Below are positions 12,387-38,985 of a DNA stretch of 39,628 nucleotides, piece after piece (positions within the stretch are counted from its first letter, which is position 1; each line of letters opens with the position of its first letter). The stretch is from IMG/VR virus record IMGVR_UViG_2554235126_000004; one strand, written 5' to 3'. A program made the translations under genes and the position numbers. The stretch is from a virus. Its lineage: Duplodnaviria > Heunggongvirae > Uroviricota > Caudoviricetes. The notes under the pieces are model-generated. The model saw only the letters and a program-made list of their open reading frames with translations, was not told the origin of the DNA and did no database searches.

Positions 12387-13202
12387 TTATTTCTTTTTTT
12401 TATTACTTTCAGATAATCGTTGGTTTAATGTGTATTTTATTTGGTTCCTAATCATTTTTTCAGGAATGTCATATTTGTCTAAGAATGATATTATTTCATC
12501 CTCGTCAAGCAATCCATTCTTTATAATTTCATCTATCTGTTTTTGTAGATACCAAACATCCTTCTGTTCTACAGGAGTTAAATTCATATGGCTATTTATG
12601 GAGTTGATAGTAGCATCACGTTCAAGAACTCTAATCCTTTGATTTAATGAACGAGTGTTTTGTAATATTTCAGATAAAAGATCTTGTTCAGTACGTGGTT
12701 TTACTTCTTCAGTTGGAGGGTATTGATCTAAAGCTCGTTTAAAATTGTTTTCAAATTGCTCCCAGTATGTATTAAAAACTTGCTTTAGAATACGGTCATC
12801 TAAAGATTTATCGACAAGACAATTGTTTATTGTCCTTACTAATTCCCAAACACTCTCTTTATTTGGCGTTGTGTGATTGAATTGAGCAAGTGGATCTTTT
12901 AAATCTTCTGGTTTTAAGTCAATCAAGAATGTACAAACTTTATTTGTTGAAAGTCCTTTTGCTAGTGCTCCTGTTTCAAACAAAATCCATGGTTTATTTT
13001 TATTTTCTTGTGTCAAACATACAATGCCGACAGATACATCTTTTAATTTATCATTAATTTCAGAGAACCATATAGCGCCACGATCAATATCTCTGGTTGA
13101 AATCCATGGCTGCGAAGCTTGGATAACACACTTCAGCCAGTCGCTAATAAGTTCTGCAACAGCTTGACTTCTTTGCCCAGACCAACTTATGAACACTTTC
13201 AT
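12387..13202 (-). CDS. TIR-like domain protein with uncharacterised helical C-terminal domain (candidate anti-phage defence effector)
   Basis: Start placed at ATG 13202 (MKVFISWSG...) with GGAG RBS; N-terminal pattern KVFISWS ... GIVCLTQEN ... PWILFETG (Trp/Glu motif) typical of bacterial TIR / TIR-like domains; AT-rich; opposite strand to flanking late genes. Confidence 0.6.
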   Translation of the reverse strand: MKVFISWSGQRSQAVAELISDWLKCVIQASQPWISTRDIDRGAIWFSEINDKLKDVSVGIVCLTQENKNKPWILFETGALAKGLSTNKVCTFLIDLKPEDLKDPLAQFNHTTPNKESVWELVRTINNCLVDKSLDDRILKQVFNTYWEQFENNFKRALDQYPPTEEVKPRTEQDLLSEILQNTRSLNQRIRVLERDATINSINSHMNLTPVEQKDVWYLQKQIDEIIKNGLLDEDEIISFLDKYDIPEKMIRNQIKYTLNQRLSESNKKKK

Positions 13203-19643: not shown

Positions 19644-20060
19644 ATGGCGGTAGATATTAAAGATGTCGAACAGGTCGCGCAGGAGCTGCAGCAGAAGTTT
19701 GACGACTTCAAAGCAAAGAACGACAAGCGCGTGGATGCGATTGAGCAGGAAAAAGGCAAACTTGCCGGGCAGGTGGAAACCCTGAACGGGAAACTCAGCG
19801 AGCTGGAAAACCTCAAAAGCGATCTTGAAAAAGAGCTGCTTGAGCTGAAACGTCCGGCAGGTGGTGCGCAAAATAAACTGGCCACCGAGCATAAAGAAGC
19901 GTTTGTGGGCTTCCTGCGTAAAGGCCGTGAAGATGGTCTGCGCGATCTGGAGCGTAAGGCATTGCAGGTGGGCACCGATGAAGACGGTGGCTATGCCGTG
20001 CCGGAAGCGCTGGATCGCAACATTCTCACCCTGCTGAAAGATGAAGTGGTGATGCGCTAG
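19644..20060 (+). CDS. major capsid protein, N-terminal scaffold (delta-like) domain; ends at in-frame TAG
   Basis: 138-aa coiled-coil-rich product; TAG at 20058-20060 is in the same frame as the downstream capsid ORF. Confidence 0.7.
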   Translation: MAVDIKDVEQVAQELQQKFDDFKAKNDKRVDAIEQEKGKLAGQVETLNGKLSELENLKSDLEKELLELKRPAGGAQNKLATEHKEAFVGFLRKGREDGLRDLERKALQVGTDEDGGYAVPEALDRNILTLLKDEVVMR

Positions 20061-20069
20061 GAAGCCACG

Positions 20070-20849
20070 GTGATCACCGTTGGCGGTTCCGACTACAAAA
20101 AACTGGTGAATCTGGGCGGCACGGCTTCCGGATGGGTGGGGGAAACGGATACGCGATCCCAGACTGCCACCTCCAAACTGGAGCTGATTGAACCTCTCAT
20201 GGGGGAAATCTACGGCAACCCGCAGGCCACCCAGAAAATGCTGGACGATGCCTTCTTCAACGTGGAGGCCTGGATCAACAGCGAGCTGGCAACCGAATTT
20301 GCCGAACAGGAAGAAATTGCCTTTACCTCAGGCGATGGCACCAAGAAGCCGAAAGGGTTCCTGGCGTATGAATCCACTGATGAAACCGATAAGGTCCGGG
20401 CGTTCGGCAAACTTCAGCATATTGTATCCGGCGAAGCGACTGCGGTGACCGCAGACGCCATTATCAAACTTATTTACACACTGCGTAAGGCACACCGCAC
20501 CGGTGCGAAGTTCATGATGAACAACAACAGCCTGTTTGCCATCCGTCTGCTGAAAGACAGCGAGGGTAACTATCTGTGGCGTCCGGGGCTGGAGCTGGGG
20601 CAGCCGTCCTCTCTGGCGGGTTACGGTATCGCTGAAAACGAACAGATGCCGGATATCGCCGCTGATGCGAAAGCCATTGCATTTGGTAACTTCAAACGGG
20701 GTTACACCATCGTTGACCGTATCGGCACCCGCATTCTGCGTGACCCGTACACCAATAAACCGTTTGTCGGTTTTTATACCACCAAACGCACCGGCGGCAT
20801 GCTGGTCGATTCGCAGGCCATCAAACTGCTGAAGATTGCAGTGGCGTAA
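20070..20849 (+). CDS. major capsid protein, HK97-fold body (GTG start; in frame with upstream ORF across TAG)
   Basis: 259 aa; same frame as 19644..20060 separated by TAG-GAA-GCC-ACG; AGGAAG lies 5 nt upstream of GTG 20070. Confidence 0.75.
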   Translation: MITVGGSDYKKLVNLGGTASGWVGETDTRSQTATSKLELIEPLMGEIYGNPQATQKMLDDAFFNVEAWINSELATEFAEQEEIAFTSGDGTKKPKGFLAYESTDETDKVRAFGKLQHIVSGEATAVTADAIIKLIYTLRKAHRTGAKFMMNNNSLFAIRLLKDSEGNYLWRPGLELGQPSSLAGYGIAENEQMPDIAADAKAIAFGNFKRGYTIVDRIGTRILRDPYTNKPFVGFYTTKRTGGMLVDSQAIKLLKIAVA

Positions 20850-31185: not shown

Positions 31186-32230
31186 ATTTCAGCGCCCGAC
31201 GCTGGCAGAAAATATCAGTATGCTCCGTAACGATTTATTCGCCAGGCTGGACGTCAGCGACACGCTCCGGCGCATGGATGAAGACGTGCGGGCAAAGGTG
31301 TATGCGGCGGCGCTGCATACGGTTTACGGGTACATCGATTATCTGGCAATGAACATGCTGCCTGACCTGTGCGATGAGTCCTGGCTGGCGCGACATGCTG
31401 CGATGAAACGGTGTCCGCGCAAGGGGGCCACGGCTGCCAGCGGGTATATGCGCTGGGAAGGTGTCAGCGATGGCCTGAAGGTGACCGCCGGAAGTGTTAT
31501 TCAGCGCGATGACCTGGTTCAGTACACGGCAACTGCCGATGCAACCAGCACCGGTGGTGTCCTGCGCGTGCCGATCGCCTGCTCAAGTGCAGGCGCGGTC
31601 GGTAACGCTGACGACGGTACGTCATTAATCCTGGTCACGCCGGTTAATGGTCTGCCGTCTTCCGGCGAGGCAGATACCCTGACAGGTGGATTTGATATTG
31701 AAGAGCTGGAAACGTGGCGCGCCCGCGTCATTGAGCGGTATTACTGGACGCCTCAGGGCGGGGCTGACGGGGACTATGTCGTCTGGGCTAAAGAAGTGCC
31801 CGGCATTACCCGCGCATGGACATACCGACACTGGATGGGAACGGGGACTGTCGGTGTGATGATAGCCAGCAGTGACCTGATTAACCCCATTCCGGAAGAA
31901 TCAACGGAAACGGCGGCAAGACAACATATCGGGCCACTGGCCCCGGTGGCAGGCTCTGATTTGTATGTATTCAGGCCGGTGGCACATACGGTGGATTTTC
32001 ATATCCGCGTGACGCCGGACACACCAGAAATACGGGCTGCCATTACCGCGGAGTTGCGTTCGTTCCTGCTGCGTGATGGTTATCCGCAGGGAGAACTGAA
32101 GGTATCGCGTATCAGTGAGGCGATTTCCGGTGCGAACGGGGAATACAGCCATCAGTTGCTTGCACCGGTGGACAATATCTCCATTGCGAAAAACGAACTG
32201 GCGGTACTGGGGACGATTTCATGGACGTGA
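31172..32230 (+). CDS. baseplate J-like protein (Mu gp47-like)
   Basis: 352 aa. Confidence 0.8.
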
Positions 32231-32805
32231 CAAACGATGATTACATCCGCCTGTTATCGGCACTGTTGCCGCCCGGTCCGGCGTGGTCAGCCAGCGATCC
32301 GGCGATTGCCGGTGCGGCACCTTCATTAACCCGTGTTCATCAGCGTGCGGATGCCCTGATGCGGGAGCTGGATCCGCGCACCACCACTGAACTGATAAAC
32401 CGCTGGGAGCGTCTGTGCGGTCTGCCGGATGAATGTATTCCGGCGGGAACGCAGACCCTTCGCCAGCGTCAGCAACGGCTGGATGCGAAGGTTAACCTGG
32501 TGGGCGGCATCAACGAGGATTTTTATCTTGCACAGCTTGCTGCCCTGGGCAGACCAGATGCCAACATCACGCGATACGACAAAAGCACGTTCACCTGCTC
32601 ATCGGCCTGTACTGACGCGGTGAATGCGCCGGAATGGCGGTATTACTGGCAGGTCAACATGCCAGCTGCCACCAACACCACTTGGATGACATGTGGCGAT
32701 CCCTGTGCTTCCGCACTGCGTATCTGGGGCGACACCGTTGTTGAGTGTGTGCTTAACAAACTCTGCCCGTCGCATACCTACGTAATTTTTAAATATCCGG
32801 AGTAA
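32221..32805 (+). CDS. tail protein YmfQ / Mu gp48-like (DUF2313)
   Basis: 194 aa; resembles e14 YmfQ as recalled. Confidence 0.75.
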
Positions 32806-32808
32806 TCC

Positions 32809-33558
32809 ATGCATCGTATAGACACGAAAACCGCGCAGAAGGATAAGTTCGGCGCGGGTAAGAACGGTTTTACCCGTGGTAACCCCCAGACCGGCACACC
32901 TGCCACCGATCTGGATGATGACTACTTTGACATGTTGCAGGAGGAGCTTTGCAGCGTGGTGGAGGCATCCGGTGCCAGCCTGGAGAAGGGGCGGCACGAC
33001 CAGTTGCTTACCGCGCTTCGTGCGCTGCTGTTAAGCCGCAAGAATCCGTTTGGCGATATCAAATCGGATGGCACGGTGAAAACGGCTCTCGAAAACCTTG
33101 GTTTGGGAGAAGGTTCTGCATTACCTGTTGGGGTGCCTGTTCCGTGGCCTTCAGCCACTCCGCCAACAGGCTGGCTGAAATGCAACGGTGCGCCTTTTTC
33201 TGCCGAAGAGTATCCGGAACTGGCAAAAGTTTACCTGACAAATAAATTGCCTGATTTACGCGGTGAGTTTATTCGTGGCTGGGATGACAGAAGAGGAATA
33301 GATACTAGCCGTAGCTTGCTTTCATCACAGGGCGATGCCATTCGAAATATAATTGGTGCATTAGTGGATGTCAGGTTCAATACCTATCCTTCTGATTCTG
33401 GCGTTTTTACAACCAGCGTCATCGGAGATGCTTCATCGGATTCAATTAAAGGTGGTTATGCAAAGCGAGTAACATTCGATGCTTCCAGAGTTGTTCCAAC
33501 TGCAAACGAAAACCGACCTCGTAACATTGCCTTTAATTATATCGTGAGGGCTGCCTGA
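32809..33558 (+). CDS. tail fibre protein (constant N-terminal part plus currently expressed variable C-terminal part with tail-collar-like domain)
   Basis: 249 aa; crossover site at 33086-33111 lies inside the gene at codons ...ENLGLGEG; C-terminal region shows composition change. Confidence 0.8.
33086..33111 (+). other. Gin/Pin/Hin-type inversion crossover site (left)
   Basis: CTCTCGAAAACCTTGGTTTGGGAGAA fits the recalled hix/gix pattern ...AAACC-NN-GGTTT...; inverted copy at 34931-34956 shares 14 identical bp. Confidence 0.65.
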
Positions 33559-34166
33559 TGAATAAAGTTGTCTTAAATAACGAACTCATTGCCATAAAAG
33601 CTGGAGACATAACCGTTTATAATTATAATGGTGAAACGCGGGAATATATTTCCACATCAACAGAATATCTTGCCATTGGTGTAGGCATTCCGGCATGTTC
33701 CTGTTTAGATGCTCCAGACTCATACAAAACTGGTTATGCAATTTGCCGTTCTGAAGATTTTAACTCATGGGTATATGTGCCAGACCATCGTGGTGAAATT
33801 GTCTATAGCACTGAAACAGGAGAATCAAAAGAAATCACAGCTCCGGGTGATTACCCTGATAATACAACCACTATCGCCCCGTTAACGCCATACGATAAAT
33901 GGGATGGTGAGAAATGGGTGACGGATACCGTGGCACAGCATAGCGCCGCAGTAGATGCAGCAGAAGCACAGCGCCAGTCGCTGATTGATACTGCAATGGC
34001 CTCCATCAGTCTGATTCAACTGAAATTACAGGCCGGACGGAATCTGACGCAGTCAGAAACCAGCCGACTTAACACGGTGCTGGATTACATTGACGCGGTA
34101 ACGGCAACAGATACCAGCACCGCGCCGGATGTCATCTGGCCTGAACTGCCGGAGACTGCGCAATAA
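33558..34166 (+). CDS. tail fibre assembly protein (Tfa)
   Basis: 202 aa; C-terminal region ...LDYIDAVTATDTSTAPDVIWPELP matches conserved Tfa C-terminus. Confidence 0.85.
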   Translation: MNKVVLNNELIAIKAGDITVYNYNGETREYISTSTEYLAIGVGIPACSCLDAPDSYKTGYAICRSEDFNSWVYVPDHRGEIVYSTETGESKEITAPGDYPDNTTTIAPLTPYDKWDGEKWVTDTVAQHSAAVDAAEAQRQSLIDTAMASISLIQLKLQAGRNLTQSETSRLNTVLDYIDAVTATDTSTAPDVIWPELPETAQ

Positions 34167-34335
34167 ACTCACCATCAATATATAAATCCCCCTGCTGTGT
34201 GTCAGCAGGGCATTCTTTCCATATTAATGATGGATGGAATCTTCCTTCAGGATTAATTTCCGTTATCTCTTCTACTTTATTTTCTTCAATTCTTGCCCAC
34301 ATATGAACCTCACCAGTAAATATAAACTGCGCCAT
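34132..34335 (-). CDS. short alternative tail fibre assembly-like ORF (Tfa', expressed only after inversion; possibly truncated)
   Basis: 67-aa ORF starting at ATG 34335, directly after S'v stop, inside invertible segment; ORF track entry 34132..34560 is an upstream extension. Confidence 0.35.
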   Translation of the reverse strand: MAQFIFTGEVHMWARIEENKVEEITEINPEGRFHPSLIWKECPADTQQGDLYIDGEFIAQSPAVQAR

Positions 34336-34984
34336 CTGCTCCGGCACCCGACTGACCCGTTGATGAATTAGGACATAATCCAGCACCGCCACCTCCAGGC
34401 CCAACTGCTGATACCGCTTTTCCGTTAGCTGTATCTCTGAATGAACCTGCTCCTCCGGGGCCACCACCAGAACCACCATTACCAGCTCCCGATGCGGCAG
34501 ACGCAATGGAACCTGGAGAACCTGGCCCAAGCGATGTATTAATTGTTCCCCCAACACCAACTGCGCCTAACCCTCCGGAAGGCTGGCCTCCGCTATAGCC
34601 TCCGGAAGCTGACATGTAAGTCCCGAAACTGCTCGAGCCACCATTTTTACCGTTTACAGAAATACCAGACACAGGCGCACCACCGGCACCAACCGTAATC
34701 GAAACACTGTTAATACCAGTTAAATCTACCAGTCCCTCAGCAACTCCGCCCCCACCACCTCCTCCGCCACATGTAACGGCTGAAGCGGTTATTGAACCTA
34801 TCCCTCCTGACGCACCGCCACCAATAACTTTGACGTAACATTTTCTTCCTTTGCGCAACTCTTCAGGAACAGTCCAGCTTGTTACTCCAGCCGTTGTGAA
34901 GGCAACTAGATTTCTGAACCCAAATGAGCCTTCTCCCAAACCAACGTTTATGAAAATGCAGAAATAACGAGCAAATGGCATCAT
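34310..34984 (-). CDS. alternative tail fibre variable C-terminal segment (S'v, Gly-rich); silent in current orientation
   Basis: Gly-rich ORF on minus strand whose 5' end runs through crossover site (codons GLGEG identical to constant part); no own start expected. Confidence 0.6.
   Translation of the reverse strand: MMPFARYFCIFINVGLGEGSFGFRNLVAFTTAGVTSWTVPEELRKGRKCYVKVIGGGASGGIGSITASAVTCGGGGGGGGVAEGLVDLTGINSVSITVGAGGAPVSGISVNGKNGGSSSFGTYMSASGGYSGGQPSGGLGAVGVGGTINTSLGPGSPGSIASAASGAGNGGSGGGPGGAGSFRDTANGKAVSAVGPGGGGAGLCPNSSTGQSGAGADGAVYIYW
34931..34956 (-). other. Gin/Pin/Hin-type inversion crossover site (right)
   Basis: TTCTCCCAAACCAACGTTTATGAAAA; inverted orientation relative to 33086-33111. 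Confidence 0.65.
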
Positions 34985-35011
34985 TCCTGCTTTTACTTGG
35001 GGGGATTTAAC

Positions 35012-35203
35012 ATGCTTATTAGCTATGTACGCGTATCAATAAATGACCAGAACACAGATCTACAACGTAATGCGTTGAACTGTGCAGGATGCGAGCTGAT
35101 TTTTGAAGACAAGATAAGCGGTACAAAGTCCGAGAGCCTAGGGCTGACAGTGCTGTTCTTGATGCAAATTAAAGGATTTAATAGTGAGTTGCGGCCTTAC
35201 TAA
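35012..35203 (+). pseudogene. serine invertase (Pin/Gin family) 5' fragment, truncated after about 45 conserved codons
   Basis: MLISYVRVSINDQNTDLQRNALNCAGCELIFEDKISGTKSE matches invertase N-terminus including catalytic Ser region, then diverges and stops; full invertases are about 190 aa. Confidence 0.75.
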
Positions 35204-35214
35204 TGTAAGGCCGC
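35191..35214. other. perfect 10-bp palindromic hairpin at junction between invertase fragment and restriction-gene island
   Basis: GCGGCCTTAC-TAAT-GTAAGGCCGC; lies between the two convergent genes; no strong U-run on either strand. Confidence 0.3.
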
Positions 35215-35236
35215 TATAATCATTTTATTAATTGCA

Positions 35237-37126
35237 TTAATCGTATTTTGGCCATACTTTCAATGCAATTTCCCCCAACTTTTTACCTCGCTCCAGTATT
35301 TCACTCTCATCCCATTTATCCTTAAGTATAAGTGGTATGTTCAGTCGTAGATTGGTGTGGACGATGAGAGCATCACGTTTTTTCAGAAATACAGCATTCT
35401 GAACGGAACGGTTTACGCTAAGGTTAAGCAAAGTTAGATTTCCCAACGTAGCTATCGCTTGTTGCCGTTTCCTTACCAGTAGCTGTTCAGGGGTAAGATC
35501 GGTTCCAGACAGAACAATTTGGTTCATTACCGTAGCATCTGAATTTGTCACCATATGACCATTTTCGAGAGGCCAACAGGAATACCAACTTTGAGGCATA
35601 AGATGATCGATATCGAGATTAGAAAGATTTGGAACATCAGGCTTTTCTGTCTTCACTTGGCGACAAAGTTCTCTTTCAAGTTCCGTTAACATTGAGCGCA
35701 TTTTCGGTGCGTCGAGCCTGCCAGGATAAAGTGGAGCATTGATGCAAGCGTTGAGAAATTCTGAGTCCCCAGGCCAACGTGAGGCTTCGCCATTTAAGCT
35801 ATTGAGGATATTACGTAACTCAACACTGGAAATTTCCGTTTTAGACAAGTGTCGCAATACATTCATAAATACATTGTTGTAATTCTTTGGCGTCAGGCCA
35901 CATACGGATCTTCGTACTACGTAGGAGACAAGATCATTATACATGGCTGCTTTCTCATCATCGGCGATGTTAGCTATCGAAATGAACAAAGCAAGCGGAT
36001 AGAGTGTCGTCACATCATAGGCTGCGATGCGATGTCCAAAGTGTGAGATGGGGGTTGTGCCAAAACCACCAACCAATTCTTTATATTGTGATGCATATTG
36101 TTTGAGGCGCTTTACTTGCAGATCTGCTCGTTGTGAAGGCAAGTCCTTACTTACATAATCACGATACTCATTGTAAAGGCGAGACAGATCAATTTCACGC
36201 TGCCTTTCTGATTGCAATGTCGCATGTACAAGCCACTCCATGCGTGGTTTATTAATACGTCCACGGCGTTGCTTTTCCGACCAGTATTTATCTTCAAAGA
36301 TCTTCCACTCATTTTCATATAATTCAATAGCATTAATATTTTCATGCTCAGCGCACATAAAGATATAGTTGCGAATAAGATCCGTTGCATGAAGTTCCGC
36401 TCCTCGCCCATTTAATGTTTCAAAAATTATTTGGGCATCATCTTCAGCTTCGAGAAATATGCTTACCAGTTTCAGATCCGTCAAGACAGCCTCAATTAGT
36501 GCTACAGCATTTTCTTGTGGTGAGTGGTTTTCTATTTTAATCCATTTTATAAAGGCTTCAGTAAAAAACCATAATGCCTCTAGTGACGGCGGGTGGTTGA
36601 AATGTTTACGTAACGTACCATGTTGCGTGAAGCTATCAGAAAATACATTACGGAGATCGTCAATATTATCAACATTAAGACTTTGAATAAAATGAGTTTG
36701 ATCTCGAAAAGTTGGCCACAGTTTGAAGCATTCTACCTTTTTATTTCTCATCGTTGCTTCGTTTGTATTTTTCAAGCAAGTCAATACTAACCCTTCCAGT
36801 TCAGAAAGGCCTGTAGCACGCAATGATAATCGAATGGATGCCAGAATATATTGAAGAGTGGTTAAACGTTGCTGGCCGTCAATAATATGTATGGTATCTA
36901 CACCTAACAAGCTGTTTTTGAGTTGAGGTTCCAGCACCACCGCGCCGAGGAAATGAGGGGTTGGTTTTGTTCCCGAAAGTCGGCTCTGTGCTTTTTCGAA
37001 GATATCCTCCAGCAAAGCTGACCATTGGTTTCGTTGCGTCCATACGTAGGCACGTTGATAGAATGGAACACGATATTGTCGTTGATTTTGGAAAATTTGC
37101 TGGATGGTTAGCGTTTCGGATTTCAT
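35237..37126 (-). CDS. GmrSD-family type IV restriction endonuclease-like protein (DUF262 N-terminal, DUF1524 His-Me finger C-terminal)
   Basis: 629 aa; N-terminal FYQRAYVW and IIDGQQRLTTL (DGQQR) motifs; C-terminal ...DIDHLMPQSW...GNLTLLNLSVNRS; AT-rich. Confidence 0.8.
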   Translation of the reverse strand: MKSETLTIQQIFQNQRQYRVPFYQRAYVWTQRNQWSALLEDIFEKAQSRLSGTKPTPHFLGAVVLEPQLKNSLLGVDTIHIIDGQQRLTTLQYILASIRLSLRATGLSELEGLVLTCLKNTNEATMRNKKVECFKLWPTFRDQTHFIQSLNVDNIDDLRNVFSDSFTQHGTLRKHFNHPPSLEALWFFTEAFIKWIKIENHSPQENAVALIEAVLTDLKLVSIFLEAEDDAQIIFETLNGRGAELHATDLIRNYIFMCAEHENINAIELYENEWKIFEDKYWSEKQRRGRINKPRMEWLVHATLQSERQREIDLSRLYNEYRDYVSKDLPSQRADLQVKRLKQYASQYKELVGGFGTTPISHFGHRIAAYDVTTLYPLALFISIANIADDEKAAMYNDLVSYVVRRSVCGLTPKNYNNVFMNVLRHLSKTEISSVELRNILNSLNGEASRWPGDSEFLNACINAPLYPGRLDAPKMRSMLTELERELCRQVKTEKPDVPNLSNLDIDHLMPQSWYSCWPLENGHMVTNSDATVMNQIVLSGTDLTPEQLLVRKRQQAIATLGNLTLLNLSVNRSVQNAVFLKKRDALIVHTNLRLNIPLILKDKWDESEILERGKKLGEIALKVWPKYD

Positions 37127-37936
37127 TGTTTACCTATAAATAACATTAAGTGACATTCCACAAGAGTAAGAAATTCATCTGAGTCAGAACAATCATTTTT
37201 ATGTAGTTATGATACAGTGTATTTGTTACTGGTGAAGTAAAAATAAGAAACCCCGCTTTTGAATGCTGACGCGCTACGGTTTCATTGGATATTTTTTGTC
37301 TCTCCTCCATCCCGTTGGTGTTCTGTTTAGAATGATAACTTGCTGTTTTTATTGATATTAGTTTATTGCGCCGCCCAATCATGGTTGGTGGGTTGGTGGG
37401 AGTTAAATCCACATTGGTATGAATAACATAGAATATGAATTAGTGTTTCAGAATTGCTTCAGCCATCACTTTTTAATACGTTCAATTTGAATGTTTATTT
37501 CCGAAACAATTTTTTCAGGTTTCAGTCCCTCGTTAGATTGCACAAAATCTCTAATTTGCATCATTCGATGTGCACAAATTTATAATTCGCTATAAACACT
37601 TAGCTCGTCAGATTCATTTTGAGATTGTTCACCTATTTAAAATTCTACATAAGTATGTGGCGGATTGTGATAAACACGAGAAATCGGGGTTGGCCACCAT
37701 TCCTCACCGGTCACTACGTCCGCATCGAATAGTACAGTTTTGTCAATTTCCATTAATTTCTGGATAAGAACAGAAGTTTTCAAGCGAACCTCCATTTGGC
37801 CATAAAGTGGTTATCAAAACGCTACGTAAACTATACAAAATCAGCGAGTTATGGTGAAGGTAAAAAAACAAGTTTAGATGTTCGTTAAGCATAAAATTGT
37901 TTTAATTCAATTGGATATAATAATTTTCTAAATCTA

Positions 37937-38101
37937 ATGTTACGCCATATGGGCTGGACTGAAGCCGCAGACTTGATTGTTAAAGGTATGGAAGGCGCAA
38001 TCAATGCGAAGACCGTAACCTATGATTTCGAACGTCTGATGGAAGGTGCTAAACTGCTGAAATGCAGCGAGTTTGGTGATGCGATCATCAAGAACATGTA
38101 A
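37937..38101 (+). pseudogene. icdC: icd (isocitrate dehydrogenase) 3'-terminal fragment at prophage/chromosome junction
   Basis: Translation [54 protein letters not shown] matches the Icd C-terminus as recalled; no upstream icd coding sequence. Confidence 0.8.
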
Positions 38102-38124
38102 TTACTACATGTGTTAAATATTGT

Positions 38125-38156
38125 AACGGGCGTATAACACGCCCGTTGTTTTATTT
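38125..38156 (+). terminator. rho-independent terminator following icd fragment
   Basis: Stem AACGGGCG/CGCCCGTT, 7-nt loop, followed by GTTTTATTT. Confidence 0.75.
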
Positions 38157-38203
38157 ATGTGGATATTATTAATATCATGTCGAGAATATTTATATGAAGG
38201 CCA

Positions 38204-38527
38204 TTACTTGAGTCCATATGGGCATATTTTTATAATACAACTATTATGTAAACATTTATTTGTTATTTCGCTTTCTCCTGGAGGACACTCTTGACTGCTT
38301 TTGAGTAAACTCCATAAATTCTTGTTGAATGGTGCAATGTTATAAATAGTAATAGGATATTCTTTATCCTCAAGGATAATACCAGGCTTAACCGGTGTAA
38401 ATATACTTCCAGGAGGAAGAAATATAGTAGATTGATACCAGATGATCATTTTCATATCACCCCATATGGCTGAAAAAGATATGCCGCATGTAGGTTGAAT
38501 TACCGTGTCAATTACTACCCACTTCAT
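38204..38527 (-). CDS. iraM: anti-adaptor protein IraM
   Basis: 107 aa; [23 protein letters not shown]...[16 protein letters not shown] closely matches E. coli IraM as recalled. Confidence 0.85.
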
Positions 38528-38985
38528 TTGTTATGTCTTATCCCACGGTATTTAATATAGTTCATTTGGATGTTCATTTCTTTATTTTGCATATGAGTAT
38601 ATTACCCTTCAAAAAAATAAATTAATTAAAACGATTGCTTATATAAAACAAAATTTAAAGCAAGTAATCTCAATAGAGATTAAACAAAATGAGATTTAGT
38701 GAAAACATTAAATCATTCACTTCGTTTTAGATTTGTTTAGTTAAAATGTTATACATTCAAATGACTGAACATCCTGTAATTAAAACATAGCCTTTATGCT
38801 ACTTTGCGCTAATTTGCTAAACATTATGATTGGCCTTTTTATATAACGATAATGATGAATATAAGCATGACATGAGAATAAGGTTTCAATTTTTGAGTTA
38901 TATAGGAATGATTTAACCTGTTCCTGGCTAAAATACATATAACCGGATGATGACTAAACCAAAACACATGTGCGTTAAGTATTGA

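Follow-up and report, generated by a model that had tools for sequence, protein, structure and literature searches.

The DNA analysed here, a stretch of 39,628 bp referred to below as the window, reads as a full-length e14-like prophage of Escherichia coli integrated at icd. It differs by 3 SNPs from strain 1190, in which an e14-like prophage lies between icd and icdC. The gene order is that which places the P segment in e14, running from intE/xisE through ymfQ, the fibre gene, a remnant of the invertase gene (pin') and a cargo region to icdC; in strain 1190, icd lies at the opposite end. The prophage is defective, with an amber codon in its capsid gene. The region of interest is the invertible P segment of this e14-type prophage, a serine-invertase switch of the Gin/Hin/Pin class. 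The original prediction had outlined an invertible tail-fibre segment at this position but missed that it is the e14 P segment already described, both 26-bp sites being equal to K-12 pixL and pixR. The system is therefore known and not a new kind of element; it has been textbook material since the 1980s. The features of the segment and its immediate borders are listed below.

32809 to 33098, plus strand: constant N-terminal part of the fibre (Sc; StfP N-terminus), lying outside the segment and extending to the crossover centre; the ORF starts at 32809.
33086 to 33111, no strand: pixL crossover site, CTCTCGAAAACC-TT-GGTTTGGGAGAA, a natural inversion junction.
33099 to 33558, plus strand: variable fibre C-terminus 1 (tail-collar type, K-12 stfE-like), now fused in frame to Sc (PF07484 Collar; phrog_523 tail collar fiber).
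33558 to 34166, plus strand: tail-fibre assembly gene of cassette 1 (TfaE-like, 202 aa; PF02413 Caudo_TAP, E 2.7e-32; phrog_105, E 2.6e-96).
34132 to 34305, minus strand: 57-aa ORF downstream of the Gly-rich cassette, with GAGG 5 nt upstream of its ATG.
34190 to 34210, no strand: G+C-rich hairpin between the convergent cassettes, terminator-like on both strands, found by a hairpin scan and lying inside the 57-aa ORF.
34310 to 34943, minus strand: variable fibre C-terminus 2 (Gly-rich domain; PF21722 Gly_rich_2, E 2e-11), silent relative to Sc in the window orientation.
34931 to 34956, no strand: pixR crossover site, TTCTCCCAAACC-AA-CGTTTATGAAAA, a natural inversion junction.
34957 to 34984, minus strand: short leader outside the segment (MMPFARYFC...) that opens an ORF (34310 to 34984) into the pin-facing cassette; equivalent of the K-12 stfE start.

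The two inverted 26-bp sites had been placed correctly by the original prediction. Compared with reverse-complemented pixR, pixL is equal at 21 of 26 positions, of which 14 are contiguous; the original prediction had given 14 identical bp. The inverted repeat reaches further inward and covers 24 nt at 92% identity (33093 to 33116 and 34926 to 34949), the top inverted repeat of the region. The core, AAACC-NN-G/CGTTT with AA/TT at the centre, aligned with Mu gixL and gixR in the manner of Din-type sites, and neither 26-mer differs from its counterpart, pixL or pixR, in e14 of MG1655 (K-12), so the proposed Gin/Hin/Pin crossover pattern was borne out. The 16-bp repeat TTGGTTTGGGAGAAGG is the one published for the P segment (PMC12529663). 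In the 39.6-kb window the core AAACCNNSGTTT was found only at pixL and pixR (expected count 0.22; three matches were reached in 2 of 100 shuffles). The site centres are 1,845 bp apart, in agreement with the ~1.85 kb noted earlier, and the GLGEG motif described there as shared across the site is encoded across both pixL and pixR.

The stretch 32000 to 33113, which includes the Sc coding part, is 98.2% identical to K-12 ymfQ-stfP, and Sc remains with the left flank in both orientations. In the window orientation, ORF 32809-33558 encodes a 249-aa protein with a Phage Tail Collar domain (PF07484, E 5e-14). Positions 33093 to 33305 and 33508 to 34154 are 88–90% identical to K-12 stfE/tfaE over the aligned parts, while 33306 to 33507, about half of the collar cassette, gave no alignment to K-12 stfE/tfaE. 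In-silico inversion produced an in-frame 307-aa protein of Sc plus the Gly-rich end, which matched phrog_863 as one continuous stretch (E 2.8e-58). The fibre gene thus has two alternative in-frame C-termini, 249 aa with the collar and 307 aa with the Gly-rich end, as in Din systems; the pair foreseen in the original prediction, a collar (PF07484) with a full Tfa (PF02413) versus Gly_rich_2 (PF21722), is present. Cassette 1 carries the Caudo_TAP Tfa and cassette 2 only the 57-aa ORF. On the pin side, K-12 stfE starts MPFACYFFIFINVGLGEG, and the ORF joining the leader to the collar is annotated by PGAP in the inverted genomes. A sigma-70 promoter scan of 34100 to 35300 returned sites no more numerous than in shuffles.

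The 57-aa ORF had been taken for a short Tfa'. This assignment was rejected, with no Caudo_TAP match in Pfam or PHROGs, no match there to any other family, and no family in a search of 5.8 billion proteins, which returned only 4 homologues. Appending the ORF to the Gly-rich protein did not lengthen the phrog_863 match. It may still be a small accessory gene, because one metagenome contig carries an 82%-identical 56-aa ORF after a fused 300-aa Gly_rich_2 fibre gene.

To the right of pixR lie the remains of the invertase gene and the DNA that replaced the rest of it.

35012 to 35158, plus strand: pin' stub, the first ~45–49 codons of pinE, carrying the changes G4S and T10I; PF00239 residues 3–47 only.
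35033 to 35096, no strand: putative Fis-dependent recombinational enhancer (pin nt 22–85), proposed from position and homology.
35148 to 37926, no strand: replacement cargo that removed pin nt ~137–555 and the mcrA region; K-12 homology ends at 35147 and returns at 37927, shortly before the right end of e14.
35191 to 35214: hairpin within the replacement cargo.
35237 to 37126, minus strand: GmrSD-type type IV restriction gene (DUF262) in the cargo (Pfam GmrSD_N and GmrSD_C; PADLOC mREase_IV full length, 1523 bits).
37937 to 38101, plus strand: icdC, the displaced 3' end of icd that marks the right prophage end (attR); its translation is the Icd C-terminus, and it is so annotated in strain 1190 and K-12.

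Truncation of the cognate invertase, recognised in the original prediction, was confirmed. In ORF 35012-35203 the match to the Resolvase N-terminal domain covers no more than its first ~47 residues; neither the remainder of the catalytic domain nor the HTH domain is left. Homology to K-12 pinE (118/123 nt identical) is lost at 35147–35158, leaving ~136–148 nt of the 555-nt gene, or ~45–49 of 184 codons. The stub is called a pseudogene by PGAP in identical genomes and was already flagged as such in public annotations. The intact serine recombinase with catalytic domain and C-terminal HTH that adjoins the segment in Din systems is absent here, and no other serine recombinase is annotated within the prophage. 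The earlier conclusion that any switching needs an invertase in trans accordingly stands.

The stub retains pin nt 1–136, including the stretch homologous to the hin/gin enhancer. G-N13-C 15-mers occur at pin nt 22–36 and 71–85, with centres 49 bp apart, and both are conserved in pinE and Mu gin; the proximal one begins ~90 bp from the pixR centre. This geometry agrees with the description of the hin enhancer, which is 65 bp long with a Fis site at each end and lies ~100 bp from hix (PMC3798978). A Fis enhancer may therefore persist in the first 85 nt of pin, which the stub preserves.

Loss of the invertase had led to the proposal that the segment is likely phase-locked, and public genomes with the same truncation argue against it. 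When the window was inverted in silico at the site centres, the 2,700 bp compared matched strain SW4848 with 0 mismatches, and SW4848 carries the same pin' and the same DUF262 protein. Orientation was counted in 23 genomes at least 99% identical across pin'-DUF262, with A denoting the window orientation and B the inverted one. All share the truncated pin and the DUF262 gene; A was observed in 5/23 and B in 18/23, where an assembled orientation represents the majority state of a culture and not a rate. In all 18 B genomes the segment strand was opposite to the flank strand. Misassembly as the source of the two orientations was ruled out, since the repeats are only 24 bp and the junctions are exact reciprocal products. 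Both orientations were also found in a second pin'-DUF262 lineage with different cassettes (E4 versus LST200A).

An insertion element bears on the order of events. Three genomes carry IS1414 at one and the same position in tfa, flanked by an identical 8-bp target duplication (34022 to 34029); the tagged segment has orientation A in AST240 and orientation B in JNE070796 and AST20. Between AST240 and AST20, the prophages and their flanks differ at 5 positions in ~46 kb. A derived insertion shared by both orientations of near-identical prophages means that inversion went on after pin was lost. A change of orientation within a clonal lineage is thereby already indicated for AST240 versus AST20. 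The truncation junction was found in 301/5,426 complete E. coli genomes (~5%), which makes the truncation old relative to the inversions, and these genomes carry several different fibre segments. Actual inversion by exchange within the sites, as in a Din system, is thus documented by the exact inverted form in SW4848, by the 5 versus 18 genomes and by the IS1414 tag. The refutation tests set out in the original prediction speak for an active switch: the sites align with gix and equal pix, and both orientations were seen among genomes.

We therefore regard the segment as an orphan switch that is not frozen: invertases provided in trans still flip it, with exchange exactly at the pix centres (probability roughly 0.8). 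Sc continues across pixL into either of two C-terminal cassettes, the current state being Sc with the tail-collar end and the TfaE-like assembly protein and the other state the Gly-rich end with the 57-aa ORF. A cargo module with the GmrSD-type type IV restriction enzyme took the place of all DNA between pin codon ~46 and the prophage end, destroying the cognate invertase gene. The cis elements are all still there: pixL and pixR and, judging from homology, the Fis enhancer in the first 85 nt of pin. Flipping would be carried out by invertases of phages that are co-resident or incoming, for example PinQ/PinR-type enzymes or others of the Pin/Gin family. The anatomy, the match of the sites to K-12 pix and precise inversion later than the truncation are demonstrated, whereas the choice of enzyme, the role of the enhancer and the rate in this particular strain are inferred.

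A candidate enzyme is at hand in strain 1190, which encodes a PinQ identical to K-12 PinQ at 196/196 residues, with pinQ at a Qin-type site. A Rac-type prophage with pinR was ruled out in this strain, where ttcA-dbpA is uninterrupted. Inversion of the e14 P segment by the K-12 enzymes PinQ, PinR and PinE has been reported (Kirigo et al., NAR 2025, PMC12529663). In the AST240 and AST20 chromosomes of the IS1414 clade, megablast found no pinQ-like gene; a 'distant' search found two further candidate loci similar to the pinE+DUF262 query in both.

That the segment is a phase-locked relic, effectively frozen with the collar cassette on Sc and the alternative cassette dead cargo, appears unlikely. 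It is in keeping with a non-functional invertase of ~45–49/184 codons, with a prophage that is defective anyway, and with a K-12 pinE deletion mutant in which the P segment was reported locked in one orientation despite chromosomal pinQ and pinR (PMC12529663). The K-12 result indicates that inversion in trans may be rare or conditional, and the deletion would also have taken away the enhancer that the stub retains here. A frozen segment conflicts with the two orientations among truncation-sharing genomes, including an exact inverted twin, and inside the IS1414-marked subclade, and with the intact PinQ of the near-identical strain 1190.

Alternatively, the orientations could predate the truncation, the pin'-DUF262 module having spread by homologous recombination with no inversion after pin loss. 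Such spread is plausible in general, as 301 genomes with several different fibre segments have the junction in common, but the IS1414 marker, at one site with one duplication in both orientations of prophages differing at 5 of ~46,000 positions, and the 2.7-kb match of the window to its inverted twin with 0 mismatches would be left unexplained, and we consider this account very improbable. Least credible of all is inversion that needs no site-specific recombinase and proceeds through recombination between the 16–24 bp inverted repeats, either RecA-dependent or by short homology: the exchange point can be placed only within the 16-bp identical core, so the junctions alone are no proof of serine-recombinase chemistry, but a perfectly identical stretch of 16 bp falls short of the minimal substrate that RecA usually needs, the repeats are canonical crossover sites and not arbitrary ones, and enzymes with known action on exactly these sites are present in the same genomes.

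Beyond the orphan switch inverted in trans, a speculative extension is that the switch is maintained, with the stub persisting as an enhancer carrier and control passed to the invertases of other prophages (PinQ). Flipping in a capsid-defective prophage might then serve the host and not virion host range, for example through alternative surface-active fibre fragments. PinQ is reportedly induced by phage infection, and surface-active fibre fragments have been reported for K-12 StfE2. We consider this extension doubtful, though it should not be dismissed.

The analysis indicates that about 5% of complete E. coli genomes carry the e14 fibre switch without its own invertase, and the comparative data show continued flipping. 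This provides population-level support for cross-talk between prophage invertases and cautions that loss of the adjacent invertase gene is insufficient to call a segment "locked". The pin-attR interval acts as an exchangeable slot for defence genes, holding McrA, GIY-YIG or GmrSD-type enzymes. The orphan arrangement, in the same ~5% of genomes, adjoins such a swapped-in type IV restriction gene.

Among known systems, the closest is the K-12 e14 P segment with PinE (stfP-tfaP-tfaE-stfE-pinE). The two share the prophage family and the integration site icd/icdC, identical 26-bp pixL and pixR, a constant fibre N-terminus of 98% nt identity, one common cassette (collar-type stfE plus tfaE, 88–90% nt identity over the aligning parts) and the pin 5' region (118/123 nt). 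They differ in the second cassette, which is a Gly-rich end with the 57-aa ORF here and the StfP C-terminus with TfaP in K-12, in the cut of pinE after ~nt 136–148 with replacement of mcrA by a GmrSD-type enzyme, and in extent, the prophage being full length here (39 kb, Mu-like tail, HK97-like head) and a 15-kb remnant in K-12. The Mu G segment with Gin likewise has a constant Sc, a pair of alternative Sv-U cassettes that lie in inverted order, 26-bp sites whose core is AAACC-NN-GGTTT, and an invertase gene beside the right-hand site with the enhancer (putative here) in its 5' end; Mu gin and the pin stub are identical at 93/123 nt. Unlike Mu, the present segment has no functional invertase in cis, spans 1.85 kb versus 3 kb, and carries cassettes unrelated to Mu S/S'. 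Comparable switches are the P1 C segment with Cin and the Salmonella H segment with Hin, and Fin of Fels-2 acts on the Salmonella H segment. The action of PinQ and PinR on the e14 P segment (PMC12529663) is the nearest parallel to the proposed mechanism, in that an invertase encoded by one prophage acts on a segment that lies in a different one, at target repeats identical to those here; the PinQ of strain 1190 is identical as well. In K-12, however, the cassettes differ from those found here (StfE2) and the cognate PinE is still present, whereas here action in trans is obligatory.

The window differs from E. coli strain 1190 by 3 SNPs across all 39,628 bases, and its counterpart in that strain is a complete e14-type prophage inserted in icd. 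In strain 1190 the prophage carries intE/xisE, a lambdoid early region, an HK97-type head module and a Mu-type contractile tail with baseplate. The equivalent in K-12 e14 of the region under study is stfP-tfaP-tfaE-stfE-pinE. Relevant features, in window coordinates, are as follows.

19644-20849: major capsid gene with an in-frame amber codon at 20058-20060
32809-33558: fibre ORF, 249 aa, tail-fibre N-terminus and Phage Tail Collar domain
33086-33111: left crossover site
33558-34166: Caudo_TAP assembly protein (Tfa), 202 aa, directly after the fibre ORF
34190-34210: inter-cassette hairpin, inside a 57-aa ORF
34310-34984, minus strand (opposite to the fibre ORF): Gly-rich ORF, Gly_rich_2 domain
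34931-34956: right crossover site
35012-35203: truncated invertase ORF pin', 63 aa, whose match to the resolvase/invertase catalytic domain covers the initial ~47 residues and no more
35191-35214: hairpin within a 2.8-kb non-homologous interval
35237-37126, minus strand: DUF262 protein gene
37937-38101: icdC, the displaced icd 3' end

The open reading frames and their domain matches bear out the anatomy of the original prediction, namely a fibre ORF with Tfa, an opposed Gly-rich ORF and the two sites. The top inverted repeat of the region lies at 33093-33116 and 34926-34949 (24 nt, 92%), and the two predicted 26-mers, one of them reverse-complemented, agree at 21 of their 26 positions. Their core, AAACCNNSGTTT, is present in the 39.6-kb window at the two sites only (expected count 0.22; 3 matches were reached in 2 of 100 shuffles). 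Both 26-bp sites are identical to those of K-12 e14, their 16-bp repeat TTGGTTTGGGAGAAGG is known from the published P segment of 1,797 bp (PMC12529663), and they align with Mu gixL and gixR through the same AAACC-NN-GGTTT core with central AA/TT. Together these matches identify the sites, by sequence, as pix, beyond the merely Gin/Hin/Pin-like switch that had been proposed.

Truncation of the cognate invertase, also predicted, was confirmed. Alignment with pinE breaks off at 35147 when K-12 is the reference and at 35158 with strain ECCHD184, in which pinE is intact; K-12 homology returns only at 37927, a few bases short of the prophage end. The 2.8-kb interval encodes a 629-aa protein with GmrSD_N and GmrSD_C domains and an end-to-end match to the PADLOC type IV restriction model. 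The homology break and the GmrSD-type cargo indicate that a cargo exchange in the window lineage cut into pin, removing codons ~46-184 together with mcrA. The stretch from pin to the right attachment site (35148-37926) is a variable nuclease cargo slot, occupied by a GIY-YIG gene in ECCHD184 and by mcrA in phage vB_EcoM-689R6 and K-12. The same truncation junction occurs in 301 of 5,426 complete E. coli genomes.

From this truncation the segment had been predicted to be phase-locked, which proved wrong. An in-silico inversion of the window with breakpoints at the site centres (33098/34943) shows no difference from strain SW4848 over the 2,700 positions compared; SW4848 also has the same pin' pseudogene and DUF262 protein. 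The outer half-sites remain with their flanks and the exchange falls within the identical core, as would be expected of a reciprocal site-specific event. Of 23 genomes with a ≥99% match to the pin'-DUF262 junction, 5 share the window orientation; in the remaining 18 the segment and its flank lie on opposite strands. The strongest argument against locking is a nested marker. In AST240, which has the window orientation, and in the inverted AST20 and JNE070796, IS1414 interrupts tfa at an identical position with an identical target duplication of 8 bp (34022-34029), and the IS-bearing 3,180-bp segment aligns as a single reversed block. Over ~46 kb of prophage and chromosomal flanks, 5 positions distinguish AST240 from AST20, and the strains all carry the truncation together with the capsid amber codon. 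Inversion thus followed the IS insertion, in a lineage already without pin. Both orientations also occur in a second lineage that has the pin'-DUF262 junction and different cassettes (E4 vs LST200A). These comparisons argue that the segment is not locked, at least over the time span that sequenced isolates represent.

The IS1414 insertion (37553-38865 in locus L011, 37625-38937 in L012) was seen in four Japanese human isolates, the three above and JNE21-003, and is usable as a marker for dating inversions; AST240 additionally carries ISEc47 in its KilA-N gene. E4 and LST200A (loci L014 and L015) link the pin'-DUF262 module to a different invertible segment with identical pix 26-mers, gp53-like and collar-type cassettes, and tfa genes of 429 and 603 nt.

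Inversion would need two sites, an enhancer and an invertase, and both sites are intact. In the invertase genes hin, gin and cin the enhancer occupies part of the 5' coding sequence. In the Hin system it spans 65 bp, lies ~100 bp from the closest hix site and has two terminal Fis sites around an AT-rich centre containing ATTTA and TAATG (PMC3798978). The pin' stub has two G-N13-C 15-mers, at nt 22-36 (GTATCAATAAATGAC) and 71-85 (GTGCAGGATGCGAGC), with centres 49 bp apart and GATCTACAACGTAATG between them; the first begins 90 bp from the right pix centre, and conservation of the pair extends to pinE and gin. This putative enhancer (35033-35096) lies wholly within the retained 136-148 nt of pin.

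The invertase may be supplied in trans, for instance by PinQ. PinQ, PinR and PinE are each reported to invert the K-12 P segment, and a K-12 pinE deletion is reported locked (PMC12529663). Inversion in trans may therefore be rare or limited to certain conditions; in that mutant the enhancer was presumably deleted along with pinE. Strain 1190 carries pinQ in a Qin-type prophage at ydfJ, with a product identical to K-12 PinQ at 196/196 residues. There (locus L018, 21339-26000) intact pinQ adjoins stf/tfaQ, and since the pix-like core AAACC..SGTTT is absent from the surrounding 50 kb, PinQ appears to lack an invertible segment of its own at this locus. In the IS1414 clade there is no chromosomal pinQ at megablast level; a 'distant' search found two additional loci resembling the pinE+DUF262 query.

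In the window the collar cassette with Tfa is in the expressed orientation. After in-silico inversion the constant N-terminus and Gly-rich end fuse in frame (307 aa), and the fusion matches one PHROG fibre family continuously (profile positions 283-603, E 2.8e-58). A metagenome contig encodes a fused 300-aa Gly-rich fibre directly downstream of a gp48 homologue. Both observations argue that the Gly-rich form is a bona fide fibre. In inverted genomes (L002 5833-6141, L005 5541-6464, L012 36415-37338), PGAP splits the intact 307-aa protein into a truncated "stfP pseudogene" and a separate glycine-rich protein, an annotation artefact; in genomes with the window orientation the Gly-rich cassette is often unannotated or flagged partial. 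The 57-aa ORF 3' of this cassette, originally taken for a short Tfa, matched neither Tfa nor any other family in family and homologue searches. It has a plausible ribosome-binding site upstream and is conserved at 82% in the same metagenome contig. Outside the segment, a short leader at 34957-34984 (minus strand, MMPFARYFCIFINV...) begins a putative reading frame that continues into the pin-facing cassette, whichever of the two that is. It corresponds to the start of stfE in K-12, the start that yields the published StfE2 chimera.

Capsid codon 139 is changed from CAG to TAG relative to phage vB_EcoM-689R6, and the capsid pseudogene is likewise annotated in strains 1190, AST240 and AST20. The e14-like prophage, complete in other respects, probably cannot form heads, so the switch cannot currently alter the host range of its virions; any present-day function would, speculatively, have to serve the host. 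A lone TIR-domain protein gene (12387-13202, minus strand), opposite to and between the Q antiterminator and holin genes, has a moron-like position and is a possible defence gene.

Compared with K-12 e14, the collar cassette and Tfa show 88-90% nucleotide identity to stfE/tfaE over the aligning parts, with no alignment to these genes across 33306-33507, about half of the collar cassette. K-12 has the StfP C-terminus and TfaP as its second cassette, whereas the window has the Gly-rich fibre end. This switch is one more example of a system known for a long time; its second cassette differs and its cognate invertase has been lost.
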